NCBI GenBank assembly: GCA_030837625.1
Contig: JAUPKF010000002.1
Coordinates: 168 to 64,167, forward strand
Source: Patescibacteria group bacterium
Lineage (GTDB): Bacteria > Patescibacteriota > Minisyncoccia > Moranbacterales > UBA2206
Length of the DNA stretch: 64,000 bases
Direction: 5' to 3'
Shown here piece by piece: positions 11,325-61,802 of this stretch. Both the position numbers and the translations under genes were made by a program. The notes beneath the pieces are model-generated. The model did no database searches and was not told the DNA's origin. It saw only the letters and a list, made by a program, of their open reading frames with translations. Position 1 is the stretch's first letter. Each line of letters opens with the position of its first letter.

Positions 11325-11396
11325 GCGGCATTTCGGGCAGGGAACCAGTGACAGCCCGAATGTGAATCGAGCGCTCTAATTTATCCCCCCACCAAT
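11325..11396 (-). pseudogene. degenerate tRNA-Val(CAC)-like 3' portion (outer copy) adjacent to the intact tRNA-Val(CAC)
   Basis: reverse complement ggggggataaattagagcgctcgattcacattcgggctgtcactggttccctgcccga has an anticodon arm ctcga/ttCACat/tcggg but a degraded T-arm and acceptor; it parallels the intact outer copy at 28078-28150. Confidence 0.45.
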
Positions 11397-11400
11397 TGGG

Positions 11401-11474
<74 letters not shown>

Positions 11475-11534
11475 AATTGGTGGGGGGACGAGCTGAGCTA
11501 ATCGTCCAATAAATAGTACTGACACTTTTGATTG

Positions 11535-12992: not shown

Positions 12993-15083
12993 ATGGATAA
13001 TATTAAAACACTTTTTAAGAAAACAAAAAATCAACCAATTGATATATGGCTTTTCTTTTTATTTTTGTTGAGTTTTTCCTTAAGCGTAAGGAAAGTAGTC
13101 GACTATTTTCCTGTCGAAAGAACTGATCAAAGAACTTTTAATGAGTATGCCGGCATATACGTTTATATGTCCGATATATTCTTGACACTAGCCATAGTTT
13201 GTTGGATAGTATCTATACTATATAATAACTATATAAAACAGTCAAGTGTCAAGCTGTGGATAACTCTTCTTGTCCACAGAATACTCCTATATTTTAAAAA
13301 TATTGTTCCACCTGCCCGCTATGCTTCGAAATTTCACGCCGATAGTATTATCAGCAAAACCGTAAAACCTGACAAAGAAGGTACTCTGTCCCAATTGCAT
13401 AGCGAAGCAGGCGGGCGTGGAACAATCAAAAATAACGAGGCAGACGTGGAACGATTTTCTTTACAGGCTAGCATATTGTTTATTATTCCTTTGCTTTTAG
13501 TCATTTGGTCATTCATTTCGACTTTTTGGGCAAAAAATGAAACCGTTGCTTTATTTCGATCAATTAAACTGCTTGAGTTTTACCTACTATATGTTTACGT
13601 CGCCTTGCGATTAATTCCATTGTTCCATGCGGAACATAAATCAGCAACAATACTTACGAAAAACCAATCACACTACACCCCTCACGAAAATAGCTTCGAC
13701 AAAGTATCTATGATTGTTCCACGTGGAACAATCATAGGTGTCAAAGTGTTTGATGTATTTATATGGTTAATAATATTTATAGGCGTATTTCAGTCAATTA
13801 TCGCCATTTGGCAGTTCATAATCCAACACTCTGTCGGATTATTTTGGCTAAAGGAAAGCCTAATTTCGCCGGATGTTCCAGGAGTAGCTAAAATAGTTCT
13901 CAATAGTCATAAAATAATCCGGGCATACGGACTGTTTCCACATCCAAATATACTGGGCGGATTCTTACTGTTCTCAATAATTCTAACATTACTATACAAA
14001 AAATGTTCCACGTGGAACAATGCTAATGGTATTTCAACTGTTCTACATCAGTCTGCCGATAAAGCAAGCCAAACGATTGAAATAACCACCTGGACATCTC
14101 AAACCATTCGCTTTTTAACGAAAAAGTTAAGTTTGAGAAAAGTATGGCTTATCCAAGCCTCCCTGTTTATTCAGGCTTTGGCCTTATTTCTGACATTTTC
14201 CAAATCAGCCATAATCGGGATTATAATTGCTTTGGTATATATTAATGTTCCACCTGCCCGCTATGCTTCGAAATTTCACGCCAATAGTAGTATTGATAAA
14301 ACCGTAGAGTCTAATACAGAAGGTACTATGTCCCAATTGCATAGCGAAGCAGGCGGGCGTGGAACATATGATAAAAAATGGATATACAAAATGTTCCACG
14401 TGGAACAATGGCATGTGTTTTCCTTGGGTAGTAGAAAAGTAAGCAATACAAACAAGGCCAATAAAAATTCTCGTAATGGTAATTCCGTTGTTCCACGTGG
14501 AACAATGGGCAACAACCCACTGAAAGCCCAAAGTCACTCACTTTTCGGCAGAAAAGTCATTTTAATTCTGGTAATCCTTATTCTAAGCCTTTATTTGGCA
14601 AAGCCCGATTTAAGCGCTCTTTTTACCAAAAGCCTCAAAGAAAGGCTCTTTTATCTGAACGTTGCTTATGAGACAATTTTAGATAATCCGATCATTGGAG
14701 TGGGAGCGGGACAGTTCGTGTTGAACATTCCGCAGTATGCCAACCAAACTGTGGAACAATGGCAATTCCAACCCGTCCATAACATATTCCTACTAATTTG
14801 GTCGGAATTAGGTTTGGTCGGAGTGGGCGTATTTTTATGGTTTTTATGGGCTATTTGGAGAAAATCTATATTAAGCAATGATAGTCTAAACTTGTCAACT
14901 GCATTAATTCTGCGCTATTTCAAAGCAATTTTCCTCGGCTTTCTCTTTATTATGCTTTTCGATCACTATTTATGGGACATCCAACAGGGAAGCCTGCTAT
15001 TATGGACAACCCTCGGACTAATTGCCAGCATAGATAAAAGTTCACAAAGCTACCTAAATACAGAGAACCGACGGGGTTTATAG
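12993..15083 (+). CDS. O-antigen ligase (Wzy_C/WaaL)-like polytopic membrane protein carrying six in-frame repeat-element insertions
   Basis: C-terminal Wzy_C-like region (NPIIGVGAGQFVLN...QPVHNIFLLIWSELGLVGVGVF); two about 120-bp MITE copies (13304-13434, 14246-14366) are translated as VPPARYASKFHA...SQLHSEAGGRGT; four 16-bp palindromes tgttccacgtggaaca are translated as MFHVEQ/CSTWNN/VPRGT. Confidence 0.7.
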   Translation: MDNIKTLFKKTKNQPIDIWLFFLFLLSFSLSVRKVVDYFPVERTDQRTFNEYAGIYVYMSDIFLTLAIVCWIVSILYNNYIKQSSVKLWITLLVHRILLYFKNIVPPARYASKFHADSIISKTVKPDKEGTLSQLHSEAGGRGTIKNNEADVERFSLQASILFIIPLLLVIWSFISTFWAKNETVALFRSIKLLEFYLLYVYVALRLIPLFHAEHKSATILTKNQSHYTPHENSFDKVSMIVPRGTIIGVKVFDVFIWLIIFIGVFQSIIAIWQFIIQHSVGLFWLKESLISPDVPGVAKIVLNSHKIIRAYGLFPHPNILGGFLLFSIILTLLYKKCSTWNNANGISTVLHQSADKASQTIEITTWTSQTIRFLTKKLSLRKVWLIQASLFIQALALFLTFSKSAIIGIIIALVYINVPPARYASKFHANSSIDKTVESNTEGTMSQLHSEAGGRGTYDKKWIYKMFHVEQWHVFSLGSRKVSNTNKANKNSRNGNSVVPRGTMGNNPLKAQSHSLFGRKVILILVILILSLYLAKPDLSALFTKSLKERLFYLNVAYETILDNPIIGVGAGQFVLNIPQYANQTVEQWQFQPVHNIFLLIWSELGLVGVGVFLWFLWAIWRKSILSNDSLNLSTALILRYFKAIFLGFLFIMLFDHYLWDIQQGSLLLWTTLGLIASIDKSSQSYLNTENRRGL
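13304..13434. mobile_element. MITE copy (gttccacctgcccgctatgcttcgaaat ... agcgaagcaggcgggcgtggaac) inserted in-frame in the ligase-like gene
   Basis: same TIR core (ctgcccg..atgcttcgaa / ttcgaagcaggcggg) as the intergenic copies at 18853, 24778 and 39521. Confidence 0.65.
13718..14512. repeat. four dispersed 16-bp perfect palindromes tgttccacgtggaaca (near 13720, 14010, 14392, 14493); putative joined-TIR footprints
   Basis: identical palindromes matching the gttccac...gtggaac ends of the two full MITE copies in the same ORF. Confidence 0.55.
14246..14366. mobile_element. second in-frame MITE copy, nearly identical to 13304-13434
   Basis: gttccacctgcccgctatgcttcgaaatttcacgcc...ttgcatagcgaagcaggcgggcgtggaaca. 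Confidence 0.65.
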
Positions 15084-15159
15084 AAAAATAGGCAGAATAA
15101 TAAAGTAGAGCCGAGGCAATGCCTCGGCTCTACGCGTTTATATAATGCGCGTCTGTGGA

Positions 15160-23779: not shown

Positions 23780-24734
23780 AAAAGTTCAAAATACTATCTT
23801 CCAATATAGCTTGTTAAAAAGAGACGATAAGATCATAGTTGCGGTTTCCGGCGGGCCGGATTCGACCGCGATGCTGGATATCTTTTCCAAGCTGAAAAAA
23901 AAATATGATCTTGATTTGATTGTCGCGCATGTGAATTATAATCTCCGCGGAAACGACAGCAAAAAAGACGAGGCGTTTGCGAGAAAACTGGCGGAGAAAT
24001 ATAATTTGGAAATTTTCGTTTTGCGTCCGGTAGAGACGCAAAATTTTGCGTCTCTACCACAGCGCAAAAAACACCCTTCCGAAAATACGTTGCGCGACAT
24101 TCGTTACGCTTTTTTTGAAAAGATAAGATTGGAAAATAAATTTGACCATATCGCCGTCGCGCACAACGCCGACGACCAAGTGGAAACGTTTTTGTCGCGC
24201 GTCATCCGGGGAGCGGGACTTCTCGGCCTTTCCGCGATGCGGCATAAAAATAACAGCATTATCCGACCACTTCTTGATGTTCCGCGCTGCGAAATTCTAA
24301 AGTATCTGAAAGAAAACAAACTCACTTACCGCGTCGACAAAACTAATTTGGAATCGGAATTTTTGCGCAATAAAATCCGCAACAAACTTCTGCCGTATCT
24401 GGAAAAAAATTTCAACCCGGCCATCCGCCAAACTATTTTTGACGCCACCGTTTCCATTTCAGAAGATTATTCCTTGGTTTCAAATTTGATCGAAAAAAAA
24501 TACAAGAAGCTGAACGAGCTCGACGTAAAAAATATAGAAAAACTGCATCCGGCCGTCCAAAAAGGCATCGTCAGAAAAATGCTGAAAGAAAAAAAAGGCA
24601 ACCTTCAAAACATTGGCGCGGCCAACATCGAAGAAATTCTAAAAATCATAAAAAGCACGAAAAACAAAGCCCAAACTGTAGTATTTAAAGGATTGAAAAT
24701 TACCCGCAAAGGTGATAAAATCAAAATAGAATAG
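23760..24734 (+). CDS. tilS: tRNA(Ile)-lysidine synthetase
   Basis: PP-loop VAVSGGPDSTAML; located upstream of ftsH (conserved synteny). Confidence 0.85.
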   Translation: MQRNLIKKVQNTIFQYSLLKRDDKIIVAVSGGPDSTAMLDIFSKLKKKYDLDLIVAHVNYNLRGNDSKKDEAFARKLAEKYNLEIFVLRPVETQNFASLPQRKKHPSENTLRDIRYAFFEKIRLENKFDHIAVAHNADDQVETFLSRVIRGAGLLGLSAMRHKNNSIIRPLLDVPRCEILKYLKENKLTYRVDKTNLESEFLRNKIRNKLLPYLEKNFNPAIRQTIFDATVSISEDYSLVSNLIEKKYKKLNELDVKNIEKLHPAVQKGIVRKMLKEKKGNLQNIGAANIEEILKIIKSTKNKAQTVVFKGLKITRKGDKIKIE

Positions 24735-27952: not shown

Positions 27953-27988
27953 CAGGGGTCTGTAGCTCAGCTCGTCCCCCCACCAATT
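27953..27988 (+). pseudogene. 5' part of an outer tRNA-Val(GAC)-like gene (acceptor + D-stem 5' strand) interrupted in its D-loop
   Basis: gggtctgtagctcagct then cgtccccccaccaattgg leads into the inner tRNA; together with 28078-28150 it folds as a tRNA with a 6/7-paired acceptor. Confidence 0.45.
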
Positions 27989-28062
27989 GGGTGTTTAGCT
28001 CAGCTGGTTAGAGCGCCACATTGACATTGTGGAGGTCACTGGTTCGAGTCCAGTAATACCCA
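27989..28062 (+). tRNA. tRNA-Val(GAC), nested inside the D-loop of an outer tRNA-Val-like gene
   Basis: acceptor gggtgtt/aataccc, anticodon stem ccaca/tgtgg with loop ttGACat, T-loop ttcgagt; flanked by the 18-bp perfect inverted repeat ccccccaccaattgggtg / cacccaattggtgggggg. Confidence 0.85.
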
Positions 28063-28077
28063 CCCAATTGGTGGGGG

Positions 28078-28150
28078 GATAAATCAGAGCGCTACATTGA
28101 CATTGTAGAGGTTTCAGAGGTTCGAGTCCTCTCACGCCCACAGGAAGTTT
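28078..28150 (+). pseudogene. 3' part of the outer tRNA-Val(GAC)-like gene (D-stem 3' strand, anticodon arm, T-arm, acceptor 3' strand)
   Basis: ataaatcagagcgc tacattgacattgta(anticodon GAC) gaggtttc agaggttcgagtcctct cacgccc a. Confidence 0.5.
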
Positions 28151-28165
28151 TTTAAAAAAATGATT

Positions 28166-28458
28166 GGGACCATAGCTCAGCGGTAGAGCAGGCGGCTCAA
28201 AAAATATTTAGGGCTGTTTGAGAAGTAATTTTCAAGCGAATATCTGTCAAACTCGGGGAAACCTAAGGCGCCAAAAGCGCTACGGCAATCCCGAGCCAAG
28301 CCCCGACGCGTGTCGTGGAAGGTGTAGAGACTAGACGGCAGACATCCCGATATCATCGGGATGAAGGGATAGTCCAGCTCCCAAACTCGAGAGGGGTTGC
28401 GAAAGCAATAGTGAGAAGCATAACCGCTTGGTCGCTGGTTCGAATCCAGCTGGTCCCA
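28166..28458 (+). tRNA. tRNA-Met(CAT) (elongator-type or tRNA-Ile2 precursor) interrupted by a group I intron; exons 28166-28197 and 28419-28458
   Basis: exon1 gggaccatagctcagcggtagagcaggcggct + exon2 cataaccgcttggtcgctggttcgaatccagctggtccca folds into a canonical cloverleaf with anticodon CAT; G1:C72, so it is not an initiator. Confidence 0.8.
28198..28418 (+). other. group I intron (221 nt) in the anticodon loop of tRNA-Met(CAT), inserted after U33
   Basis: 5' exon ends in U and the intron ends in G; conserved group I core elements R (gtgtagagactagacgg) and S (gaagggatagtccag) pair gacta/tagtc to form P7. Confidence 0.75.
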
Positions 28459-28501: not shown

Positions 28502-29491
28502 TTATTTTTTTCTTCTCCTTCCGTGAAACGCTTGATGGACTTCTTTGAGCTGCTTGTTGGTAACGTGGGTGTAAATTTGGGTGGTGGTGATGGAAGAATG
28601 GCCGAGCATAGCTTGCACCGAGCGGATGTCGGCGCCATTAATCAGTAAATCCGTAGCAAAAGAATGGCGAAGCGTGTGCGGATGGACATCTTTGACAATT
28701 CCGGCTTTGGCGGCGTAATATTTGACGATTCTCTGGACGGAGCGGGGGGTTAATCTTAAACCAGCGTTATTATCCGTAGGGGTTCGATTAATCGAACCCC
28801 TACTTTTATTTTCGAATTTTGCCAGTCCTTTAACATCTCTCACAAACAAAGCCGGATCAATATCCATCCGCTTATCCAGATACGTCTCCAGCGCTTTCTT
28901 GGCACTTTCTGAAATAAAAACCACCCGAATTTTGTCGCCTTTTCCTCGCACGGAGAGTTCCCCGGATCCCAAATTCAACTTATCCCGATTGATGCTGACG
29001 AGTTCCGATACTCGCATTCCGGCCGAAAAAAGCATCTCCAGCATCGCTCGGTCGCGAAGCGACTTAAAATCAATTCCAGACGCCGCCCCGATAATCCTTT
29101 CCACTTCTTCCGGTTCCAAAAATTCAATTTCGCGCGCCGGAGATTTCCCAATCTCGACCTTTTCCGCGATCAATGTCTTAATGTCCCGCTTTGCCAGATA
29201 TTTAAGAAAGCTTCGAAGGGCTATAACGTAATAGCCCTGGGTAGCTTTTTTCAAGCCTTTTCCATTCTCATCTTTGTAGCGGCTCAGATGCAAGCGAAAG
29301 TTTCTTACCAATTCATCTGTAATTTCGGACGGCTTCGCTATTTTTGCCCAATCAAAAAACACCCGCAAATATCGACTATAATTTTCAATAGTCTTTTGCG
29401 AACGGTTCTTTTCTATTTCAAGATATTCCAGAAACTGAGTTTTTAGTCGCTCAATTCCACTTTTTTGTATCTTTTCTGTTTCATGTTTCAT
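28502..29491 (-). CDS. xerC: tyrosine site-specific recombinase (XerC/XerD-like integrase)
   Basis: catalytic region HTLRHSFATDLLINGADIRSVQAMLGHSSITTTQIYTHV; N-terminal SAM-like core-binding domain; 3' end lies 44 bp from the tRNA-Met 3' end. Confidence 0.85.
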   Translation of the reverse strand: MKHETEKIQKSGIERLKTQFLEYLEIEKNRSQKTIENYSRYLRVFFDWAKIAKPSEITDELVRNFRLHLSRYKDENGKGLKKATQGYYVIALRSFLKYLAKRDIKTLIAEKVEIGKSPAREIEFLEPEEVERIIGAASGIDFKSLRDRAMLEMLFSAGMRVSELVSINRDKLNLGSGELSVRGKGDKIRVVFISESAKKALETYLDKRMDIDPALFVRDVKGLAKFENKSRGSINRTPTDNNAGLRLTPRSVQRIVKYYAAKAGIVKDVHPHTLRHSFATDLLINGADIRSVQAMLGHSSITTTQIYTHVTNKQLKEVHQAFHGRRRKK

Positions 29492-30930: not shown

Positions 30931-31083
30931 CAAATTTCTAATTCACCTAATTTCTAATTCACCTAATAAAATTCAAAATTCATCAATACCTAATACAAAA
31001 AGTTATTTAGATTTTAACATTTTATTTTGCTATTTTGACTTTTATTAGGTGAATTAGGTAATTAGACAATTAGGTGAATTTTT
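30931..31083. repeat. about 150-bp imperfect palindromic element with 'ttcacctaatt' arms (copy 1)
   Basis: ttcacctaatttctaattcacctaataaaattc ... ttttattaggtgaattaggtaattagacaattaggtgaattt; the arms are exact reverse complements of the arms at 47028-47201. Confidence 0.75.
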
Positions 31084-33442
31084 AAACCCTCTTCAGCTTC
31101 GCGATACTCGCCGAAAGCTTCTTGAGACCAACTTTATTGAAAGCCACTGTCACAACATCTCCCTGCGACGCCACAATCATTCCCTCGCCAAAAGCTTCGT
31201 GACAAACGCGGTCACCATCTTTGAAATTGGTATTTGATATTTTGTATCCAGTGTCTAATGTTCCAAGTTTTGAATTTTGCTTGCCCGCCAAAGCGTTAGC
31301 GGCGGCGGGGTCATTGGAATTTTGATATTGTTTGGAATTTAGTGCTTGTGATTTGGAATTTGCGCTTTCGAAAAGGTGTTCGGGGACATCTTCAAGAAAG
31401 CGCGAGGGGGGATTGATTTGCGTCGATCCGTAAATATTTCTTTCCATCGTGAAAAGCAAATAAACTTTCTTTCTGGCCCGCGTAATTCCTACATACATTA
31501 GCCGCCGCTCTTCTTCCATTTGATTGGGATCAAGCATACTGCGCGAATGCGGCATAATCCCTTCTTCAAGACCCGCGATAAAAACATACTCGAATTCCAA
31601 GCCCTTGGCGCTGTGAAGTGTCATAAGATGCACCGCGTCGGACGCCTGATCGATTTTATCCGTGTCAGCTTGAAGCGCGATTTCTTCCAAAAACAAATTC
31701 AGGCCTTCCCCGCCTCGCGTCGACAAGCGATTGTCTTCGCGAGTCGAGGCGGGTTCAGCTTCGTATTCATCATATTTTTTGGCGACACTCAGAAGTTCCT
31801 GAACATTCTCATGACGCATCATTCCTTCGTCAGTTCCATCCAGCAGAAACTTTTCATACCCGGATTCAACATAAACTTTCTGGATTAGATCGGTCAGTTG
31901 CAACTTATTCTTCAACTCCGACATCCGTTTTATAAATTCACAAAACTTCGCGATTGGATCCAGTTTTGAATTTTGTATTTTGTATTTGGAATTTATTTGT
32001 AATTTGTAATTTGTAATTTGTAATTTCAAACCAAGTTCAATCGGACTTACATTTTCTTCTTTGGCGCCTTTCAGCCAATGTGCAAGAGTAACTCCCCCGA
32101 TAGAACGCCTCGGTTCATTGATTATCCTCTCCAGCGAAACCTCGTCATTAAAATTATTGATCAGCCGCAAATACGCCACCATGTCTTTTATTTCTTTCCG
32201 CTGGTAAAACTTCACCCCGCCGATTATCCGATAGGGAACGGAATTTCTAAGCATCGCTTCTTCAATAATCCGCGACTGAGCGTTAGTGCGATAGAGAACG
32301 ACAAAGCTGTTTAGGTTAATATTCTCTTTGTTTCTTAATTCATCGATCTCTGAAATTATGAACTCCGCTTCGTCCCGCTCGTTGTCCGCTTCGTATGAAG
32401 TTATCAAATGCCCGCCTTTGTTTTCGGTCCAAATTTTTTTATCTTTCCGGTTGACGTTTTTGGAAATGACGCCGTAAGCCGCGTCCAAAATCGTTTGCGT
32501 CGAACGATAATTTTGCTCCAATTTCACCACCGTCGCATCCGGATAATCTTTTTCAAAATCCAGTATATTTTGAATATCCGCCCCCCGCCAAGAATACACT
32601 CCTTGCCAATCGTCTCCACACACCCAGATATTGCGATACTTTTGCGAAAGCATTTTCACCAAAGTATATTGCGCGTGATTAGTGTCCTGGTATTCGTCCA
32701 CCATAATGTAGCGGAAAAAGTTTTGATATTTTTCCAAGATTTCCGGATAAGCTTTAAAGATTTTTACCGTCAGCATCAAGATATCGTCAAAGTCCAGCGC
32801 GTCCTGATCTTTCAATCTTTTTTGATAAGCGGTATAAATTTTTGCCACTACATCTTCCCAGTACCCACCCGCGCCTGCCGCAAATTTTTCCGCTTCAACG
32901 AGTTCGTTTTTAGCTTTGGAAATGGCGCCCAAGATCGCTTTCGGCTTGAACTGATCAATATTGATCTGCATCTCCTTCATCACTTTCTTCATCAGCGACT
33001 GCTGATCCTGATCATCGAAAATATTAAACGAGCTTTTATATCCAACCTTCTCAATCTCCCGCCTGAGAATTTTCACGCAAACCGAATGAAAAGTCCCAAT
33101 CGTCGGCAACCGATTCGAATCTACGGATGTATGCGAATCTTCGAATCTACGAATGCCCCCATCTTGTGATTCGTGAATTCGTGAATTCGGATTCATTCGT
33201 TGATTCGCATCGGATAATAATTTCATAATCCTCTCTTTCATCTCGCTCGCCGCCTTATTGGTAAACGTCACCGCCAAAATCCGCCTTGGCGAAATCTTTT
33301 TCTCCAAAATCAAATACGCCACCCGATGCGTCAGCGCCCGCGTTTTCCCCGACCCCGCCCCGGCGATAACAAGTACCGGCCCTTCCGTCGTCTCCACCGC
33401 CTGGCGTTGGGGAGGATTAAGTTTTTTGAGAATTTCACTCAT
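31082..33442 (-). CDS. uvrD: UvrD/PcrA-family ATP-dependent DNA helicase with three in-frame repeat insertions
   Basis: Walker A AGAGSGKT, motifs Ia/II (VDEYQDTN), VI (VGITRAR); start set at MSEILKK (33442); insertions: REP/MITE 33110-33214 (...HTSVDSNRL...), GAATTT repeats 31958-32032 (NYKLQINSKYKIQNSKL) and 31290-31340. Confidence 0.9.
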   Translation of the reverse strand: MSEILKKLNPPQRQAVETTEGPVLVIAGAGSGKTRALTHRVAYLILEKKISPRRILAVTFTNKAASEMKERIMKLLSDANQRMNPNSRIHESQDGGIRRFEDSHTSVDSNRLPTIGTFHSVCVKILRREIEKVGYKSSFNIFDDQDQQSLMKKVMKEMQINIDQFKPKAILGAISKAKNELVEAEKFAAGAGGYWEDVVAKIYTAYQKRLKDQDALDFDDILMLTVKIFKAYPEILEKYQNFFRYIMVDEYQDTNHAQYTLVKMLSQKYRNIWVCGDDWQGVYSWRGADIQNILDFEKDYPDATVVKLEQNYRSTQTILDAAYGVISKNVNRKDKKIWTENKGGHLITSYEADNERDEAEFIISEIDELRNKENINLNSFVVLYRTNAQSRIIEEAMLRNSVPYRIIGGVKFYQRKEIKDMVAYLRLINNFNDEVSLERIINEPRRSIGGVTLAHWLKGAKEENVSPIELGLKLQITNYKLQINSKYKIQNSKLDPIAKFCEFIKRMSELKNKLQLTDLIQKVYVESGYEKFLLDGTDEGMMRHENVQELLSVAKKYDEYEAEPASTREDNRLSTRGGEGLNLFLEEIALQADTDKIDQASDAVHLMTLHSAKGLEFEYVFIAGLEEGIMPHSRSMLDPNQMEEERRLMYVGITRARKKVYLLFTMERNIYGSTQINPPSRFLEDVPEHLFESANSKSQALNSKQYQNSNDPAAANALAGKQNSKLGTLDTGYKISNTNFKDGDRVCHEAFGEGMIVASQGDVVTVAFNKVGLKKLSASIAKLKRV
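33110..33214. mobile_element. REP/MITE (ccgattcgaatctacgaatg family) inserted in-frame inside uvrD between helicase motifs I and Ia
   Basis: ccgattcgaatctacggatgtatgcgaatcttcgaatctacgaatgcccccatcttgtgattcgtgaattcgtgaattcggattcattcgttgattcgcatcgg. Confidence 0.7.
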
Positions 33443-44541: not shown

Positions 44542-44913
44542 GTGGTTGAAAAACATATGACACTGGACAAAAAAACATTAGAAGAACTTAGGACGACGCT
44601 CTTGAAGGAAAAAGAAGAATTGGAAAAAAACTTAGGAAAAATCGCGCGCCCGATTGACAAGGAAGAAGGGGATTATGAAACAACTTTTTCCGAAATCGGA
44701 ACCGACAAGGAGGATAATGCCACGGAAGTGGACCAATACACCCAAAATCTCTCCGTGGAAAACACCTTGGAAAAGAAGCTCCAGGATGTTTTGGACGCGC
44801 TGGAACGCTTTGAAAACGGAACTTACGGAAAATGCGAAAATTGCGACAAGGAAATCCCGCTCGAAAGGCTTAAAGCTAATCCATCCGCTAGAACATGCAT
44901 AAAATGTAAATAA
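44542..44913 (+). CDS. DksA/TraR-family C4 zinc-finger protein
   Basis: coiled-coil N-terminus; C-terminal CENCDKEIPLERLKANPSARTCIKC. Confidence 0.75.
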   Translation: MVEKHMTLDKKTLEELRTTLLKEKEELEKNLGKIARPIDKEEGDYETTFSEIGTDKEDNATEVDQYTQNLSVENTLEKKLQDVLDALERFENGTYGKCENCDKEIPLERLKANPSARTCIKCK

Positions 44914-44953
44914 CCCGATTCGAATCTGCGAATGAATCCGAATTTACGAATGA
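44914..44953. repeat. REP/MITE half-element (cccgattcgaatctgcgaatgaatccgaatttacgaatg) at the dksA-like stop / lspA start
   Basis: begins at the taa stop codon; supplies the atgaatccgaat (MNPN) start of the next ORF. Confidence 0.65.
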
Positions 44954-45450
44954 AACACATTGTTCTATCTTTTCCTATATTATTTTTGATTTCCATCGAC
45001 CAGCTTTCTAAATATATTATCCGCGTAAAAGGCGGATTTTATATTTGCAACACCGACCTGGCTTTTGGATTGAAACCATCGTATTTTTTAGTATTTGCTA
45101 TAATATTAATAGCTATATTATCCTTAGTCGCGGTCGGAAATAGCAAATTCAAAATTACAAATTTCAAACAAATAACAATATCAAAATGCAAAACTCAAAA
45201 ATCGCTCTGGTTTGAAAAATTTGAATTTGTAATTTTGAATTTATTTGGAATTTGGAGTTTTGGATTTGGGATTTTACTCATTGCCTCCGGTGCGATATCA
45301 AATATAATCGACAGAGTATTATATGGCTGCGTCATCGACTTCATCGACCTTCATTTCTGGCCGGTATTCAATTTGGCGGATGCCTTTATCACGATTGGTG
45401 GTATAATGATAATCATGAAACACGTAGCATACAACACGAAACAACCATAG
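44932..45450 (+). CDS. lspA: lipoprotein signal peptidase II with an in-frame GAATTT-repeat insertion
   Basis: LspA motifs ([23 protein letters not shown]); the segment [20 protein letters not shown]...[18 protein letters not shown] is encoded by repeat 45118-45262; the N-terminal MNPNLR is repeat-derived and the true start may be MKHIV (44950). Confidence 0.75.
45118..45262. repeat. GAATTT/GGATTTT repeat with internal dyad symmetry inside lspA
   Basis: aaattcaaaattacaaatttcaaacaaata...aaatttgaatttgtaattttgaatttatttggaatttggagttttggatttgggatttt. Confidence 0.65.
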
Positions 45451-48592: not shown

Positions 48593-49459
48593 ATGCAACC
48601 AAAGAAATCACTAGGACAGAATTTCCTCAGAGATAAAAATATTCTTGATAAAATAATCCGAGCCGCTGATTTAAAGGCGGATGATTTTGTAATTGAAATT
48701 GGTCCCGGAGAAGGCGTACTGACTCTTAAGCTAATTAAACATACTAGTAAGGTTATTGCCATTGAGAAAGACGAGAATCTGGCGGAAAAGTTAGCTAAGA
48801 ATTTTCAATTTTCAATTTTCAGTTTTCAATCAATTTCCAATGATCCAATTTTAAATTTTAAAAATAAAGCCGCTGTTATTGTCGGAGATATGCTTAAAGC
48901 TAACTTGCCCTTACTCATAGAAAATAATTTCGTAAATTCGGATTTATTCGTAGATTCGAATCGGTTTAATTATAAAGTTATCGCCAATATTCCGTATTAC
49001 ATAACGTCGCCGATTATTAAGTTGTTTTTGGAAACAAAATATCCGCCCAAGGAAATGATTCTGATGGTGCAAAAAGAAGTGGCGGAGCGTATCTGCGCCA
49101 GCCCCGGACAAATGAGCATCTTGGCGGTGAGCGTGCGATATTACGCCAAAGCAGAGCTGTTATTTCACGTCGACAGAAAAAGTTTTTGGCCGGCGCCGGA
49201 AGTGGATTCGGCGGTGATACGAATTCATGAAACACGAAACATGAAACATGAAACAAAAGAAGACACAAAGAACTTTTTTAGAATAGTTAAGGCTGGGTTT
49301 TCGGCTAAAAGAAAAATGTTATTAAATAATTTATCCAGCAGTTTGCATTTGGAGAAAAAAATAGTCGAGGAAAAATTGAAAAAGGTCGGGATAGATCCTA
49401 GTCGAAGAGCGCAAGAACTTTCTGTTGAAGAATGGAAAAAATTAGCGAAAATTATGTAG
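48593..49459 (+). CDS. ksgA: 16S rRNA (adenine1518/1519-N6)-dimethyltransferase with three in-frame repeat insertions
   Basis: SLGQNFL, EIGPGEGVLT motifs; inserted segments NFQFSIFSFQSISNDPILNFKNK (GAATTT repeat), FVNSDLFVDSNRF (REP/MITE 48930-48964), IRIHETRNMKHETKED (catgaaac repeat). Confidence 0.85.
   Translation: MQPKKSLGQNFLRDKNILDKIIRAADLKADDFVIEIGPGEGVLTLKLIKHTSKVIAIEKDENLAEKLAKNFQFSIFSFQSISNDPILNFKNKAAVIVGDMLKANLPLLIENNFVNSDLFVDSNRFNYKVIANIPYYITSPIIKLFLETKYPPKEMILMVQKEVAERICASPGQMSILAVSVRYYAKAELLFHVDRKSFWPAPEVDSAVIRIHETRNMKHETKEDTKNFFRIVKAGFSAKRKMLLNNLSSSLHLEKKIVEEKLKKVGIDPSRRAQELSVEEWKKLAKIM
48930..48964. repeat. REP/MITE right-end fragment inserted in-frame in ksgA
   Basis: tcgtaaattcggatttattcgtagattcgaatcgg. 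Confidence 0.6.
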
Positions 49460-52315: not shown

Positions 52316-52440
52316 GTATACTAAAATCCAAATTTCCAAATCCAAATGTCAAATAAAACCCCAAATCAAAAATCCAAAATTTGTCATTGAGATTTGGGAT
52401 TTTGTTGGATATTGAGATTTTGTCATTGGGATTTTTGAAA
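52316..52440. repeat. GGATTTT/CCAAAT low-complexity repeat, intergenic
   Basis: ctaaaatccaaatttccaaatccaaatgtcaaataaaaccccaaatcaaaaatccaaaatttgtcattgagatttgggattttgttggatattgagattttgtcattgggatttttgaaag. Confidence 0.6.
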
Positions 52441-53434: not shown

Positions 53435-53464
53435 TCAGCAGAAAATCCAAATTTCCAAATCTCA

Positions 53465-53863
53465 ATGCCAAACAAAATCCAAAATCCCAACAAAAATAGC
53501 AACAGCTACGACCTCATAGAAAGAACGGCTAAATTTGGAGAAGATGTTATTGAGTTTGCCGGAACATTACCTAGAAATGAAATTAATCGACCACTTTTAA
53601 GTCAAATAGTGAGATCTGGAACAAGCATTGGAGCTAATTATATGGAAGCCGATGGAGCAGTATCGAAAAAAGATTTTGAAAACAAGATTGGCATTTGCCG
53701 AAAAGAAGCTAAGGAGAGTATGCATTGGTTTAGAATGATTGCCAAAGCCAACCCGAACCATAAAGACAAATGCAGAGAGCTATATAAAGAATCCCAGGAA
53801 TTTGTATGGATATTTTCATCCATCATAAATAGTTCCAAAAACAACAGCAAGAACAAAAAATAA
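53465..53863 (+). CDS. four-helix-bundle protein (TIGR02436-like)
   Basis: YDLIERTAKFGEDVIEF...SQIVRSGTSIGANYMEADGAVSKKDFENKIGICRKEAKESMHW, typical of this family. Confidence 0.7.
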   Translation: MPNKIQNPNKNSNSYDLIERTAKFGEDVIEFAGTLPRNEINRPLLSQIVRSGTSIGANYMEADGAVSKKDFENKIGICRKEAKESMHWFRMIAKANPNHKDKCRELYKESQEFVWIFSSIINSSKNNSKNKK

Positions 53864-53920
53864 TTGTGATTTGGGATTTTATTGGATATTGAGATTTTGT
53901 CATTGAGATTTTTGAAAGCT
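53862..53920. repeat. GGATTTT repeat / duplicated leader
   Basis: aattgtgatttgggattttattggatattgagattttgtcattgagatttttgaaagc, near-identical to 52380-52440. Confidence 0.6.
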
Positions 53921-56075: not shown

Positions 56076-57383
56076 ATGCAAAATAGCTTAGAACAAACAA
56101 GAAAAAGGCTTGAAGAAATAATTGCCTTGGATGACATTCAAAAAGCTTTTAAGCTTGAAAAAGAATTAGAAGAGGGCTTAAAAAAATATCATTTTTCTGA
56201 TAACGATAAGAATATTTGGTCAAGCTTGCTTTACAAGCTACGTGGACATTTTTTGCCATGGGCCACATCTAACAAGTTTGAGAATCTGATACAAAATGAT
56301 CTTTTGAATTTATTGCAAAGCATAGACATTAACCTAAAAGATCGCTTTAATTTGCGAGTCATGCCCTTTCCCAAAGATTCGCAAGATTTTGTAAAAATTG
56401 ATTACCTGAAAATGTTTCTAAAAAACAGGGAATTTATTGGCAAAATAACTATATCGCGCTGGCTCAAGGAATATGAAGAGTTTGTAAATTACAAACAAGG
56501 AACAAGCCTTGACAAAAAAAATTTCTTAGCCAGTAATAAAAACTCCACGGAACTAATCGATGAAGAAAAGACTACTTTAATAAAGGTTCTGGATATTTTC
56601 GACTATATCAAACCAAGCTTCGATTACAAAGACGACATAATCAATCAAAAAATTTATGATACGCCCTCGACTGAAGCAGCTGTAGCGACAAGAAGTGCAC
56701 TTAACAACATGCCTCCTGAAGCTAAGCTGATAAAACTATCTTTCTCCGACGCGCTGAAGAAATATCCCGAGCTGGGCGAACAGTTGGTGACGTCGAATAA
56801 AATCAGGCTGAAAAGTTTTCCCGATTCGGTGCGGCCGTCGATCAAGAACTGGCTGTCGGATTATACTTTTAATCTGGGATACGAAAACCACAACACCATC
56901 GTTCGCGGAAATTATTTGTTCCAAAACGAAAACGCGCGAGCGTTGAATTCACTTGATCGGGAAAAACTTAGCTATGTTTTGAAAAGTTTTGATGAAAACG
57001 GATTGGTGACAGTGAACATAACAACTAAGCAAATTGTGTTTCCGGCACCGTCAAGGAGCAATGAGCAAGAAACAATGAACAATAGAATTTCTAATCCGCC
57101 TAATAAAATTACAAATCCCTCTGTAGGCTCAGGTTTCCGCCCTGAACCTGCAAGCAGAAATATTGAACCTGAGATAAGAACAGAAAGAATTCCTGAACCG
57201 GCAAAAACCAGCCTGCCTTCCAACAACAATATGGACAAAATGCAATTTTCCTCTCCGCAAACGCTGCCTTTCGAAAAAGAAAAACTCGCACCCCAAAGCC
57301 TGCCTCTCCGCATCACACCCATCCCCAGGAAGAATGTTGAAGAAAGAGAACTGCCGAGGAACTTGGTGAACTTAAAAGAGTAA
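56076..57383 (+). CDS. hypothetical protein with Pro-rich C-terminus (435 aa)
   Basis: intact ORF inside the secretion-like cluster; followed by a REP/MITE at the stop codon. Confidence 0.5.
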   Translation: MQNSLEQTRKRLEEIIALDDIQKAFKLEKELEEGLKKYHFSDNDKNIWSSLLYKLRGHFLPWATSNKFENLIQNDLLNLLQSIDINLKDRFNLRVMPFPKDSQDFVKIDYLKMFLKNREFIGKITISRWLKEYEEFVNYKQGTSLDKKNFLASNKNSTELIDEEKTTLIKVLDIFDYIKPSFDYKDDIINQKIYDTPSTEAAVATRSALNNMPPEAKLIKLSFSDALKKYPELGEQLVTSNKIRLKSFPDSVRPSIKNWLSDYTFNLGYENHNTIVRGNYLFQNENARALNSLDREKLSYVLKSFDENGLVTVNITTKQIVFPAPSRSNEQETMNNRISNPPNKITNPSVGSGFRPEPASRNIEPEIRTERIPEPAKTSLPSNNNMDKMQFSSPQTLPFEKEKLAPQSLPLRITPIPRKNVEERELPRNLVNLKE

Positions 57384-57452
57384 CCCGATTCGAATCTACG
57401 AATAGCATTCGTAAATTCGCAGATTTGTAGACATTCGTTGATTCGAATCGGA
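57384..57452. mobile_element. REP/MITE (ccgattcgaatctacgaat...attcgttgattcgaatcgg)
   Basis: starts at the taa stop; terminal inverted repeats ccgattcgaatc / gattcgaatcgg. Confidence 0.7.
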
Positions 57453-57460
57453 TAAAGATT

Positions 57461-57850
57461 ATGCTATTCAACGTCCCACAATTCATCGACATCGAAGACA
57501 AAATCGTCGGCCCGCTGACCGCCAAACAGCTGGGCTGGTTGGGATTGGCCGGAGTGATTCTTCTGATTCTCTGGAATTTTCTCGACACTCAAGCGATGAT
57601 CATCGCCGCCGTTGTCGTCGGCGGAGTTTTCGGCGCGCTGGCGTTCTACCGCCCGTACAACCAATCTCTCATCCAATTTATTTTTTCCTCATTCCTCTTC
57701 GCCACCCGCCCCAAAATCTATATCTGGCGGAGATTCTATGATAGTATGAATACAGAAAAGAAAACCGACAAAAAAATTGAAATCGTTAAGGAAAGAAAAA
57801 AGTTGAACAGGGAGAAGATAGGAGAAATAGCGAAGAGACTGAATTCTTAA
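57461..57850 (+). CDS. PrgI/VirB3-like small membrane protein
   Basis: N-terminal VPQFIDIEDKIVGPLTAKQLGWLGLAGV, matching the PrgI-family signature; two TMs. Confidence 0.6.
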   Translation: MLFNVPQFIDIEDKIVGPLTAKQLGWLGLAGVILLILWNFLDTQAMIIAAVVVGGVFGALAFYRPYNQSLIQFIFSSFLFATRPKIYIWRRFYDSMNTEKKTDKKIEIVKERKKLNREKIGEIAKRLNS

Positions 57851-57888
57851 CCCGATTCGAATCTACGAATGAATCCGAATTCACGAAT
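57851..57888. repeat. REP/MITE left-half element
   Basis: cccgattcgaatctacgaatgaatccgaattcacgaat, starting at the stop codon; contains the atgaatccgaat used as the start of the next ORF. Confidence 0.65.
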
Positions 57889-58270
57889 AATAAAAACAAG
57901 CATAAATGTTTTATATCCGGAACTATCTTACACTATAAACGGGATTTGTTTTAATGTGCATAATAAATTAGGAAGGTTTTGCAGAGAAGTTCAATACGCC
58001 GATGAATTGGAAGCGGAACTTATCAAGAAAAAAATTCCCTATAAAAGAGAATCCAGAATATTAAAACAAGATAAATTTACTCGGAACATAATCGACTTTA
58101 TTGTAAACGACTGCATAATACTGGAACTCAAGGCAAAAAGCATTATAACAAAAGATGATTATTATCAAGCAAAGAGATACCTGATCTCATCCAATAAACA
58201 ACTGTGTCTTATTGTCAACTTCAGAGATACCTACTTAAAGCCTAAAAGAATTTTGCATAATAATTCGTAA
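57869..58270 (+). CDS. GxxExxY-family protein (PD-(D/E)XK-like)
   Basis: LSYTINGICFNVHNKLGRFCREVQYADELEAEL...IIDFIVNDCIILELKAKS...YYQAKRYLISSNKQLCLIVNF matches the GxxExxY family; the N-terminal MNPNSR is repeat-derived. Confidence 0.65.
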   Translation: MNPNSRIIKTSINVLYPELSYTINGICFNVHNKLGRFCREVQYADELEAELIKKKIPYKRESRILKQDKFTRNIIDFIVNDCIILELKAKSIITKDDYYQAKRYLISSNKQLCLIVNFRDTYLKPKRILHNNS

Positions 58271-58307
58271 ATTCGCAGATTCGCATACATTCGTAGATTC
58301 GAATCGG
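58264..58307. repeat. REP/MITE right-half element
   Basis: ttcgtaaattcgcagattcgcatacattcgtagattcgaatcgg. Confidence 0.65.
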
Positions 58308-58311
58308 TATT

Positions 58312-59001
58312 ATGGAGACTCTACATTCCTCACAACTAGCCAACAAAGCCACGACCACCGCCACCCAAAAGTATCTCGACGTTGCGGAAGTTAAGGAAGA
58401 CGTGGTGGTTTTGAAATCCGGATCTATTCGGGCGATTTTAGCCGTATCGGCTATCAATTTCGAGCTCAAATCCACCGAGGAACAGGAAGCGATTATCGGG
58501 CAATACCAGAACTTTCTCAATTCCATCGATTTTCCCTTGCAAATCCTCATCAGCTCCCGGCGGCTCAATATGGAAAATTATTTGAGTTTCCTAACCGATA
58601 AAGAAAAGCAGCAGCCCAACGAGCTTTTGCGGATGCAAATCGCCGAATACAAAAACTTCATCGACCAGCTCGTCAGCGTTTCCAACATAATGGACAAGAA
58701 TTTCTACATCATCGTTCCTTTTTCGCCGATTGAAAACAAAGACAAGGGATTCTTCTCCAAAGTTTCCAGTATGCTAAACCCCAAAAGAGAAATTATGGAA
58801 AAAAGAGAAAGTTTTGAAATGATGAAAAGCCAGCTATACCAAAGAGTCGACCACATCATCGCCGGACTGGCCGGCATTGGTCTTCGCATAATTCCGCTCA
58901 AAACCGAAGAACTGATCGAACTGCTGTTCAACTCCTACAACCCCAGCGTGTACAATTCAGTGGAATTGAAGGAAGTAAGCAAGCTGGAGCTACTGAAATA
59001 A
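58312..59001 (+). CDS. virB4: VirB4/TrbE N-terminal domain, encoded as a separate ORF
   Basis: YLDVAEVKEDVVVLKSGSIRAILAVSAINFELKSTEEQEAIIGQYQNFLNSIDFPLQILI fits the conserved VirB4 N-terminal pattern; 229 + 604 aa together match full-length VirB4. Confidence 0.6.
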   Translation: METLHSSQLANKATTTATQKYLDVAEVKEDVVVLKSGSIRAILAVSAINFELKSTEEQEAIIGQYQNFLNSIDFPLQILISSRRLNMENYLSFLTDKEKQQPNELLRMQIAEYKNFIDQLVSVSNIMDKNFYIIVPFSPIENKDKGFFSKVSSMLNPKREIMEKRESFEMMKSQLYQRVDHIIAGLAGIGLRIIPLKTEELIELLFNSYNPSVYNSVELKEVSKLELLK

Positions 59002-59152
59002 CCCGATTCGAATCTACGAATGAATCCGAATTCACGTATCCGAATAGCCTGCTACGAATAGGCACATTCGAATGGGCGCATTCGTAGCGCGCTATTCGGA
59101 TGCTTTCATTCGTAAATTCGCAGATTCGCATACATTCGTAGATTCGAATCGG
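59002..59152. mobile_element. full-length REP/MITE, about 150 bp, separating the two VirB4 ORFs
   Basis: cccgattcgaatctacgaatgaatccgaattcacg...internal palindrome ccgaatagcctgctacgaataggcacattcgaatgggcgcattcgtagcgcgctattcgg...cattcgtaaattcgcagattcgcatacattcgtagattcgaatcgg. Confidence 0.75.
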
Positions 59153-59159
59153 CTAAATT

Positions 59160-60974: not shown

Positions 60975-60977
60975 AAC

Positions 60978-61106
60978 CCGATTCGAATCTACGAATGAAT
61001 CCGAATTCACGAATAAAGGCATCCGAATAGCACACTACAAATGTGCCCATCCGAATAACTTCATTCGTGAATTCGTAGATTCGCATACATTCGTAGATTC
61101 GAATCG
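60978..61106. mobile_element. full-length REP/MITE
   Basis: cccgattcgaatctacgaatgaatccgaattcacgaat...catccgaatagcacactacaaatgtgcccatccgaata...attcgtgaattcgtagattcgcatacattcgtagattcgaatcgg. Confidence 0.75.
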
Positions 61107-61115
61107 GATAACGAA

Positions 61116-61688: not shown

Positions 61689-61693
61689 TAAAA

Positions 61694-61791
61694 CCCGATT
61701 CGAATCAACGAATATATGCAAATCTACAAATACTTCCCTTGTTATTATTTGTAGATTCGTGAATTCGAATTCATTCGTGGATTCGAATCGG
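61694..61791. mobile_element. REP/MITE copy
   Basis: cccgattcgaatcaacgaat...tgtagattcgtgaattcgaattcattcgtggattcgaatcgg. Confidence 0.7.
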
Positions 61792-61802
61792 AATTAGAAG
61801 TT

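Follow-up and report, generated by a model that had tools for sequence, protein, structure and literature searches.

Closest to the element reported here are the RPEs (Rickettsia palindromic elements), reported by Ogata et al. in Science in 2000 and by Ogata et al. in Genome Research in 2002. RPEs are 105-146 bp long, carry terminal inverted repeats, form a stem-loop and are present in-frame in 19 conserved genes, and it was shown that an RPE-bearing guanylate kinase is still active (PMC2229807, PMC10969869). Bacterial MITEs that occur intragenically, such as ERIC/IRU and the 107-bp Correia/NEMIS elements, are small and non-autonomous, are found in many copies, form stem-loops and are bounded by terminal inverted repeats; they possess an open frame that is fusable to host ORFs, and these families have TA or other target-site duplications, some with candidate mobilising transposases (PMC2229807). 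REP/BIME elements are palindromic and intercistronic, located just downstream of operon stop codons, and may act on mRNA; by definition REPs are extragenic; they are 20-40 bp in length, carry a GTAG/CGTC tag and are associated with RAYT transposases (PMC3733652). Inteins are intervening segments that leave a conserved enzyme functional, and they are self-splicing domains of at least 130 aa.

A palindromic element read in-frame was found within a helicase gene of the window, i.e., the whole 64-kb stretch of DNA that was analysed. It belongs to a non-coding, hairpin-forming dispersed repeat, for which the name CGAAT family was coined here. The gene, the element and its parts are located as follows:

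31082-33442, minus strand: gene of a PcrA/UvrD-family SF1 helicase, 786 aa, start MSEILKK
33110-33214, minus strand: in-frame CGAAT-family palindromic element in pcrA/uvrD, 105 nt = 35 codons, PcrA residues 77-111
33168-33213, 33156-33167 and 33110-33155, in sense direction: left arm, loop and right arm of the element
33194-33213 on the minus strand and 33110-33129 on the plus strand: the 20-mer termini of the element

The sense (minus) strand of 33110-33214 is TCCGATGCGAATCAACGAATG...CCGTAGATTCGAATCGG and it is translated within the 786-aa ORF as SDANQRMNPNSRIHESQDGGIRRFEDSHTSVDSNR; the peptides predicted from this region are MNPNSR, IHESQDGGIR and FEDSHTSVDSNR. The two ends represent the family terminus CCGATTCGAATCTACGAATG in inverted orientation, with one and two mismatches, respectively, and the 46-nt arms match the intergenic copies to 85-93%. 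The hairpin has a folding energy of -38.4 kcal/mol (z = -3.8 vs shuffles). The only stop-free sense frame is frame 0, which is the frame in use, and the ORF runs on past the insert through all downstream helicase motifs. A preliminary description of this DNA had reported a repeat copy of 105 nt at these positions in uvrD that is read through in frame; its coordinates and sequence proved right, with 35 codons and termini matching the dispersed family, and the read-through was confirmed. With 105 nt the copy is a multiple of three in length, and the intergenic copies, being 67, 456, 150, 130, and 97 nt long, show no phase constraint.

In a phmmer comparison, the ORF matched the solved structure of PcrA (PDB 1pjr) with E = 3.5e-189, spanning residues 3-714, and a search for PcrA homologues found 8000 sequences, the nearest being a PcrA of Moranbacteria. 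The SF1 motifs are all present (GSGKT, TFTNKAA, TFHS, DEYQD, QNYRS, HSAKGLEF, and VGITRA). Toward its orthologs the host gene shows an amino-acid identity of 71-77% and a third-position identity of 43-48%; the values for one ortholog, 77% against 48%, indicate that the gene is intact and under purifying selection. That the gene is essential, as stated in the preliminary description, is an assumption; Firmicutes depend on pcrA for viability, and E. coli can do without uvrD. The insert was originally placed between motifs I and Ia. This has to be corrected, as motif Ia (TFTNKAA, residues 59-65) together with its helix precedes the insert and the GTFHS strand (residues 116-120) follows it. Here, the alignment with 1pjr breaks exactly, query residues 80-115 standing against PcrA residues 84-89, and solved PcrA has approximately four residues at the site. 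The AlphaFold2 model of the protein predicts a helix at residues 62-83, followed by coil over 84-113 and by a strand that comprises 114-117, with pLDDT values below 50 at residues 87-106 and of 88-96 in the flanks. According to this model the insert is a disordered surface loop at a site compatible with the protein fold, and with the corrected position the 35-aa segment does map to a predicted surface loop when it is compared with 1pjr and the model, as the preliminary description had expected from an alignment with orthologs. Conservation and the structure model suggest that the PcrA enzyme still works with the insert.

The same 105-nt insert is present at the same pcrA codon in the independent assemblies L001 (Logan), L002 (JGI/NCBI), and L004 (JGI), and it persists in at least three divergent lineages. 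In the ortholog P0018/L023 the site is near-empty and reads CTATTA-GATAAAAAATATGAG-TTGCCG only, and many PcrA orthologs have 10-12 residues at this position. The solved PcrA/UvrD structures and the insert-free orthologs show that the segment is an insertion and not ancestral helicase sequence, contradicting the alternative raised in the preliminary description that insertion-free relatives would reveal it as ancestral. Family members or remnants are found in PcrA of L008, L020, L021, and L022 at the same left boundary TTATTA-N-CCGAT. Across Moranbacteria the PcrA loop is hypervariable in length and sequence. Most PcrA orthologs have no insert or carry unrelated hairpin families at the site, and in other Moranbacteria the same loops of PcrA and RsmA house different repeat families. 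In L007, L017, and L018, an inter-domain linker of DNA polymerase I contains half of a CGAAT-family element in frame, and a protein-coding palindrome is probably also present in LspA, TilS, and XerC. In a neighbour-joining tree of 110 PcrA orthologs the carriers of the insert do not form one clade, so that one insertion with simple vertical descent thereafter does not suffice. A genome scan for the exact 20-mer terminus returned 14 loci, which show the spread of the family but are sequence-ascertained and too few for statistics; a search of metagenomes for the PcrA junction GTAGATTCGAATCGGNTGCC recovered a single locus, which nearly duplicates L002 and did not enlarge the set for covariation.

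Members of the CGAAT family have 20-nt terminal inverted repeats, and their arms are composed of ~8-nt ATTCGNNN units. Allowing up to three mismatches, the 20-mer terminus occurs 14 times in the window compared to 0.02 occurrences expected from shuffles, and these 14 termini constitute six convergent pairs and two solo ends. Besides the PcrA insert, the family is represented in the window by five full intergenic copies and two half copies; the intergenic ones are listed here together with an ORF lodged in one of them:

57385-57451, plus strand: full copy, 67 nt, separating a TAA stop codon from the start of a PrgI-like gene
57852-58307, plus strand: full copy, 456 nt, termini with 0 mismatches
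57869-58270, inside the loop of the 456-nt copy: GxxExxY / PD-(D/E)XK ORF, 133 aa (TIGR04256, E = 7e-20; PF13366, E = 1e-19)
59003-59152, plus strand: full copy, 150 nt, -77 kcal/mol, between the gene of a VirB4 N-terminal domain and a VirB4 ATPase gene
60978-61107, plus strand: full copy, 130 nt, -59 kcal/mol
61695-61791, plus strand: full copy, 97 nt, -35 kcal/mol
44915-44953, plus strand: solo left arm, between a dksA-like stop codon (44911-44913) and the start of lspA (ATG 44950)

All copies fold into long hairpins with energies of -24 to -77 kcal/mol. An upstream ATG of lspA, at 44932, is located inside the solo left arm. The element is often preceded by TAA, and it is followed by N+TAA in three of the five intergenic copies. 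The motif VDSNR or FVDSNR was also found in antisense open stretches over intergenic copies, as had been noticed before, e.g., at 60978-60992 on the minus strand within a stretch of 288 codons. In total, 39 of the 210 GANTC sites of the window fall in elements, and their depletion outside is modest and similar to that of GATC; a special role of GANTC, TTCGAA or GAATTC sites was considered and dismissed, these sites being taken as a by-product of the unit sequence. Small PD-(D/E)XK (GxxExxY) and 23S-IVS-protein genes are lodged in the loops of the same hairpins. The window contains, as a separate family, short GTAG...CTAC palindromes at 15105-15133, 24029-24058, and 28776-28803.

A second housekeeping gene of the window carries a part of the element:

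48593-49459, plus strand: rsmA/ksgA, 16S rRNA dimethyladenosine transferase, 288 aa (TIGR00755 ksgA, E = 2.5e-73; PF00398, E = 6e-58)
48929-48972, plus strand: CGAAT-family right-arm fragment, in frame in rsmA/ksgA, reading FVNSDLFVDSNRF / …NNFVNSDLFVDSNRF…

The right-end fragment in ksgA of the preliminary description is real: it is 86-91% complementary to the left arms at 44907-44950 and 57838-57887, and it is absent from the closest orthologs. It contains the 20-mer terminus at 48945-48964 on the minus strand with one mismatch. The fragment (30 nt) adds ten residues to the loop before the NIPYY motif, and the nearest RsmA orthologs, which do not have these ten residues, read LIEKN-NFQ-NYKV there.

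In analogy to RPEs, the element is a palindrome in the range of 100-150 bp that is bounded by terminal inverted repeats and forms a long stem-loop (here 105 nt, with 20-nt termini and 46-nt arms), it occurs in intergenic and intragenic copies (here five full intergenic copies, pcrA and rsmA in the window, and pcrA and polA elsewhere), its intragenic copies are read as part of the frame of conserved housekeeping enzymes, where the sites are compatible with the fold, as judged here from the model, and it has no known transposase of its own. In contrast to RPEs, the host belongs to the Patescibacteria/Moranbacteria and not to Rickettsia, the sequence is apparently unrelated, the arms consist of CGAAT units with a period of ~8 nt, several unrelated hairpin families occupy the same protein loops across lineages, and the insert, which seems to be orthologous, has arms that are much more conserved than expected under neutrality. 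The latter two features, multi-family loop occupancy and frozen arms, were not found stated for RPEs in the RPE literature searched. As the host is a Patescibacteria MAG and no Rfam family was matched at gathering threshold, the element is classed as working like an RPE and not as an RPE; an Rfam miRNA match over the operon copies was discarded as being at chance level (E = 0.64). An in-frame repeat in conserved enzymes, which was initially described as unusual, was thus indeed found, but it is precedented since RPEs do the same (PMC2229807, PMC10969869).

The initial label "REP/MITE" is not established. The family has the MITE traits of terminal inverted repeats, small size, multiple copies, stem-loops and no known transposase inside, the ORF of the 456-nt copy included, and like intragenic MITEs it offers an open frame to a host ORF. 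No target-site duplication is present at the PcrA copies and none is definable from the filled sites, the spacers of the element-free operon L019 being too diverged to be aligned for this purpose, and no transposase was found among the scanned part of the ORFs of the window. With REP/BIME elements it shares the palindromic structure and the intercistronic position just downstream of stop codons. It differs from REPs in having a length of 67-456 nt, in being also intragenic, and in its terminus CCGATTCG, which is not GTAG. Like an intein, the PcrA insert intervenes in a conserved enzyme; however, it comprises 35 aa, has no splice-junction residues and is modelled as disordered. The precomputed Pfam annotation lists no PF14890 intein domain for the query PcrA (P0001) but lists this domain for the orthologs P0024, P0045, and P0054. 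With neither intein domain nor splice junctions, the insert must remain in the protein. The literature search revealed no paper on such elements in CPR/Patescibacteria, which does not show that none exists.

Probably, the PcrA segment, a copy of a dispersed repeat, was fixed in the coding sequence and is tolerated as an RPE-like passenger in a permissive loop. A copy of the non-coding hairpin-forming repeat would have arrived by a transposition-like event, would have settled in the connection between the helix after motif Ia and the GTFHS strand and would have become fixed within the PcrA/UvrD coding sequence. It may persist there as its length is a multiple of three, as it is placed in the one stop-free reading frame of the element and as its 35 hydrophilic residues would form a disordered surface loop that leaves the helicase core undisturbed. 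The protein would be made with the loop and be active, and the element itself would be without function in PcrA.

The pattern of conservation that was observed for the insert is not accounted for by a purely neutral passenger. In the three orthologous PcrA inserts the arms are 91-96% identical and the arm third positions 93-100%, whereas the 22-nt loop is 41-68% identical, compared to the 43-48% of the host third positions, and synonymous-site identity along pcrA has its global maximum at the insert in 3/3 comparisons. Recombination of a larger gene segment was rejected as the cause of this identity, as synonymous identity is at background within one comparison window on either side. It is possible, although doubtful, that the arms are kept near the family consensus by homogenisation, i.e., by non-allelic gene conversion or by re-insertion ('homing') into an older remnant, while the unique loop drifts; this would change the history of the passenger and not its functional reading. 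The frozen arms beside a loop that diverges at the synonymous-site rate and the sharp end of the conservation peak at the element borders agree with such a process. The left-terminus variants G..AA, T..TA, T..TT, and T..AA are scattered regardless of the host tree, two structural types occur at the same left boundary, one of 105 nt and one of 87/93 nt whose right terminus lies in a different frame, and in lineages without an intact copy the element decays (a 20-nt remnant in L020) or is replaced by other hairpin families (L003). However, all three 105-nt PcrA copies have TTCGAAGATTCGCATA, while the intergenic copies of the window have TTCGCAGATTCGCATA, and this shared feature fits better to descent from one PcrA-specific copy than to conversion from local intergenic copies. 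Moreover, the 9-19 kb available around L001 and L002 contain no further copy of the family, and a conversion tract was not demonstrated.

It is rather unlikely that the hairpin in the gene is functional and under nucleotide-level selection, as an RNA or DNA structure or protein-binding site that tunes PcrA expression, e.g., as an RNase III/processing site, as a pause in translation, or as a signal for recombination or replication. This would match a possible role of the hairpins in a T4SS-like operon, where the element is present in 5/5 intergenic junctions, immediately following the stop codon and lying 4-11 nt ahead of the next start, compared to plain spacers of 12-26 nt in the orthologous operon, and the arm synonymous positions are conserved over a divergence that saturates the host synonymous sites. 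Against it, the three orthologous inserts contain no compensatory double substitutions; most of the few changes in the arms disrupt base pairs, and the hairpin of the query is more mismatched than that of L001. Sense and antisense strands fold equally well with similar G-U counts and therefore show no RNA-specific G-U signature; equal strand folding and the lack of compensatory changes give no support to RNA-level selection. Furthermore, PcrA does not need the insert, as most orthologs lack it or have unrelated hairpins, and the element matches no Rfam family. Within the same operon it was suspected that the copy at 59003-59152 had split VirB4, as the N-terminal and ATPase parts are separate ORFs; this was rejected, since, among the 150 best relatives of the N-terminal protein, almost all stand alone and have a length of ~200-260 aa, and since the element-free operon L019 contains the same two genes.

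Little weight is also given to the view that the PcrA loop and its equivalents in RsmA and PolA are a conserved landing pad for hairpins, with repeated site- or structure-directed delivery or refresh that would be specific to these ultra-small bacteria, or that the arms are directly selected as a nucleic-acid signal; a landing-pad mechanism might be linked to the GxxExxY and 23S-IVS-protein genes in the hairpin loops. That the segment is an ordinary lineage-specific loop or low-complexity drift with chance likeness, an assembly artefact or part of a pseudogene is extremely improbable: the loop is hypervariable across Moranbacteria, but the 20-nt termini and 46-nt arms match the repeat to 85-93% with 0.02 matches expected by chance, the palindrome has z = -3.8, the same insert is found in four independent assemblies, and the ORF is intact with all helicase motifs.

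Protein-coding palindromes, once described as a peculiarity of Rickettsia, also occur in the Patescibacteria, another reduced-genome lineage, and affect the core enzymes PcrA, RsmA, and PolA. Odd low-complexity peptides in predicted proteins of the CPR (Candidate Phyla Radiation) such as DSNLRM…FVDSNR, PSPSPYKGEG, and ITNYEL… derive from repeats; masking them is advisable for alignments, phylogenies, and structure predictions, and they point to sites where important enzymes naturally permit insertions. The frozen arms next to a drifting loop constitute a clean and testable case to separate gene conversion, re-insertion, and nucleotide-level selection. If the landing pad or the selected signal were true, this would be an undescribed class of mobile or functional palindrome shaping housekeeping proteins phylum-wide.

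The window originates from a Patescibacteria (Moranbacteria-like) metagenome-assembled genome, whose PcrA and RsmA (KsgA) are deposited as NCBI MAG proteins. The PcrA/UvrD-family helicase aligns with the solved Geobacillus PcrA (1pjr; E = 3.5e-189) with complete SF1 motifs, and its gene carries a copy of the CGAAT family, a dispersed hairpin-forming repeat:

31082-33442, minus strand: pcrA, PcrA/UvrD-family helicase, 786 aa, start MSEILKK
33110-33214, minus strand (sense): CGAAT-family insert in pcrA, 105 nt

The sense strand of the insert starts with TCCGATGCGAATCAACGAATG, ends with CCGTAGATTCGAATCGG and is translated as SDANQRMNPNSRIHESQDGGIRRFEDSHTSVDSNR in the only one of its three sense frames that is stop-free. 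A 105-bp repeat copy read through in frame in UvrD, as the preliminary description had it, was confirmed by the family termini, the matching arms and this single open frame. Its placement between motifs I and Ia was wrong: the alignment to PcrA is broken at query residues 80-115 opposite PcrA 84-89, showing that about 30 additional residues lie between the helix following motif Ia (TFTNKAA) and the GTFHS strand, the point at which domain 1A gives way to domain 1B in PcrA/UvrD. In an AlphaFold2 model (106 sequences), residues 84-113 are coil, preceded by a helix (62-83) and followed by a strand (114-117), with pLDDT below 50 at residues 87-106 and of 88-96 in the flanks; as predicted coil with low pLDDT, the insert behaves as a disordered surface loop, in agreement with the surface loop proposed earlier. 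Many of 110 Moranbacteria orthologs have 10-12 residues alone at this site, such as P0018 with LLD-KKYELPLVGTFHS, and the DNA of the P0018 locus reads CTATTA-GATAAAAAATATGAG-TTGCCG compared to TTATTA-(105 nt)-TTGCCG in the window, which supports a repeat-derived rather than an ancestral segment. The insert is not an intein. Several Moranbacteria PcrA orthologs of ~1100 aa (P0024, P0045, P0054, P0063, P0067, P0072) contain an intein (PF14890), thus inteins and repeat-derived inserts coexist in the PcrA family. Two further in-frame stretches of a TTTGTAA/TTTGGAA heptamer family are located in ortholog-variable regions of pcrA, one in the 2B domain (31957-32032, LQITNYKLQINSKYKIQNSK) and one in the C-terminal linker (31321-31361, ANSKSQALNSKQYQN).

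Both halves of the insert match, by repeat finding, a dispersed family with further copies in the window:

57385-57451: full CGAAT copy, 67 nt, intergenic
57852-58307: full CGAAT copy, 456 nt, intergenic
59003-59152: full CGAAT copy, 150 nt, intergenic
60978-61107: full CGAAT copy, 130 nt, intergenic
61695-61791: full CGAAT copy, 97 nt, intergenic
44915-44953: solo CGAAT left arm
48929-48972: CGAAT right-arm fragment inside rsmA

The terminus CCGATTCGAATCTACGAATG, searched with at most 3 mismatches, occurs 14 times in the window (0.02 expected from shuffles), as six convergent pairs and two solo ends. The arms are composed of ~8-nt units (ATTCGTAN), and hairpin energies of all copies range from -24 to -77 kcal/mol, with -38.4 kcal/mol (z = -3.8) for the PcrA insert. 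The elements matched no Rfam family, and no transposase was found among the ORFs scanned in the window.

All five full intergenic copies are found in one T4SS-like operon (57383-61803) encoding a PrgI-like protein, a VirB4 N-terminal domain, a VirB4 ATPase and others. Each of its five cistron junctions has one copy, starting 1-6 nt past the stop codon and ending 4-11 nt ahead of the next start codon, and the copy lengths are without phase constraint. At the same five junctions a relative's orthologous operon (L019, 56% identity) has plain spacers of 12-26 nt and is free of CGAAT elements. VirB4 is encoded in two parts:

58312-59001 and 59160-60974: VirB4 as two genes (N-terminal domain, ATPase)

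Splitting of VirB4 by the intervening element was rejected; in relatives, where the two-gene state is ancestral, the N-terminal protein as a rule stands alone. The copy at 57852-58307 has perfect 20-nt termini and its loop exactly holds an ORF (57869-58270, 133 aa) for a GxxExxY / PD-(D/E)XK protein (PF13366, TIGR04256), which could be cargo, a hairpin invader or the element's own nuclease. The same layout of a small gene in a hairpin loop is seen at 53442-53912, where a 23S-rRNA-IVS-protein gene (PF05635, ORF 53465-53863) is flanked by the two arms of a heptamer-repeat hairpin of another family, of which an empty form without gene is present 1.1 kb upstream (52323-52435). A complete heptamer hairpin (45138-45275) is read through in the signal peptidase II gene lspA (44950-45450), its left arm encoding a 16-residue peptide and its right arm a hydrophobic 17-residue peptide that may supply a membrane segment; solved LspA could be aligned over the C-terminal third alone. 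Of the REP-like short GTAG…CTAC palindromes (24029-24058, 28776-28803, 15105-15133), those in a TilS-like PP-loop protein (PVETQNFASLP) and in a XerC-like integrase are read in frame, and one more is intergenic. Within 13705-14507, a Wzy_C-domain protein has four copies of TGTTCCACGTGGAACA in different frames. A group I intron (28188-28394, plus strand, RF00028, 71 bits) is located ~125 nt downstream of a tRNA (27989-28062), and the tRNA region 27963-28104 has a 142-nt inverted duplicate (90%) at 11359-11500.

The second enzyme in which the family is read through is RsmA:

48593-49459: rsmA, TIGR00755, E = 2.5e-73

The right-end fragment noticed earlier in ksgA holds (48929-48972) and reads NNFVNSDLFVDSNRF immediately ahead of the NIPYY motif; as the closest orthologs read KN-NFQ there, it amounts to 10 additional residues (30 nt). 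Pieces of the CGAAT family are present at the same site in the RsmA homologs P0152 (QKFVDSNLFVDSHRF) and P0160 (SFVDSDRL), and other lineages have unrelated repeat-like peptides (PNPSPYKGEG, HSERSEAKSKNL…, VETRHCLVS). Heptamer-derived stretches in rsmA are NFQFSIFSFQS (48800-48830, AATTTTC units), common to many Moranbacteria and missing in others, and HETRNMKHET (49226-49255, CATGAAA units) at another variable site.

The 105-nt insert was found at the identical codon in P0003 (locus L001, Logan) and P0014 (locus L002, JGI/NCBI, with L004 as near-duplicate), and it is no artefact. Conserved synteny (rpsO – NYN – … – pcrA – LysM/CHAP – xerC) identifies these loci as orthologs, and pcrA is under purifying selection since amino-acid identity between carriers (71-77%) exceeds third-codon-position identity (43-48%). 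In a neighbour-joining tree of conserved columns, of which only the coarse pattern is to be trusted because deep branches are short, the three carriers are ungrouped and P0014 is placed in another clade than the window PcrA. The proteins closest to the latter, P0002 and P0005, carry another hairpin there, which is GC-rich (PSPQPSPDYGRGG). In L020/P0004 all that remains is the element's first 20 nt (SDSNQR), L008 has a piece with the left arm only, and L021/P0060 and L022/P0050 have a second structural type of the CGAAT family with inserts of 87 and 93 nt; the left boundary TTATTA-N-CCGAT is common to these four. The phase expected of intragenic copies is kept by the 105 nt in pcrA and the 30 additional nt in rsmA; the second type has its right terminus in another reading frame, with 2 additional nt before TTG CCx. 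At least four repeat families (CGAAT, PSPSPYKGEG, TNYELP/KYQIP heptamers, ANTRIDANDAND) occupy the PcrA loop across the group, a hot spot at which inserts turn over. Scanning genomes for the exact terminus revealed an in-frame CGAAT half element in three other MAGs as well, where it occupies the DNA polymerase I linker that joins the 5'-3' exonuclease domain to the 3'-5' exonuclease-like domain (…RIP-DSNLRM-x-SESTN…):

L007, ~575-640: PolA CGAAT half element
L017, ~3451-3520: PolA CGAAT half element
L018, ~1-104: PolA CGAAT half element

The label 'Bdellovibrionales' carried by two of these MAGs may point to an error of binning or labelling.

Identity among the three 105-nt PcrA inserts (window, L001, L002) and in pcrA outside them
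Insert arms: nucleotide 91-96%, third-position 93-100%
Insert 22-nt loop: nucleotide 41-68%, third-position 38-50%
pcrA outside insert: nucleotide 67-72%, third-position 43-48%

Variable columns are rare in the arms (8/82) compared to the loop (13/22; Fisher p = 4e-6), third positions of the whole insert yield binomial p of 2e-6 to 3e-5, and in all three comparisons synonymous identity along pcrA reaches its global maximum at the insert (sliding 35-codon windows). All three PcrA copies share TTCGAAG, compared to TTCGCAG in the intergenic copies of the window, which points to common descent; left-terminus variants are spread irrespective of the host tree. The frozen arms, an unexpected pattern, may reflect gene conversion or re-insertion, or they may be under direct selection. 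Substitutions in the arms are few, affect one side and in most cases break pairs; no compensatory changes were seen in the three inserts, and the sense strand folds as well as the antisense strand, so a selected RNA structure has no positive evidence in its favour. Because synonymous identity returns to background directly beyond the insert, transfer of a longer stretch of the gene is ruled out.

The best-supported reading is a phase-compatible passenger repeat in a permissive PcrA loop: a non-autonomous hairpin-forming repeat would have landed in this surface loop, in phase and in its single open frame, and would be carried along as additional disordered residues, likely as a neutral passenger. 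Tolerance in conserved enzymes, regarded as unusual in the preliminary description, has a clear precedent in Rickettsia palindromic elements (RPEs), which are stem-loop elements of 105-146 bp bounded by terminal inverted repeats and form in-frame fusions in conserved genes; a guanylate kinase carrying an RPE remains active (PMC2229807, PMC10969869). As an in-frame palindrome in a conserved gene the CGAAT insert would work as RPEs do; however, the likeness is one of behaviour, and the element is not filed as RPE because the phylum is different. Of the earlier label 'REP/MITE', REP does not apply. MITE status is incomplete: the family is small, multi-copy and bounded by terminal inverted repeats; no transposase turned up among the ORFs scanned; and, as to a target-site duplication, TAA often stands ahead of the element and N+TAA behind it in 3 of 5 intergenic copies, with no duplication seen at the PcrA copies. 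In the literature searched, elements of this kind were not described for CPR/Patescibacteria. What lifts the finding above routine is that several repeat families have hot spots in housekeeping enzymes across the phylum, together with the frozen-arms signal; the clear Rickettsia precedent and the likelihood of a neutral passenger temper its interest.
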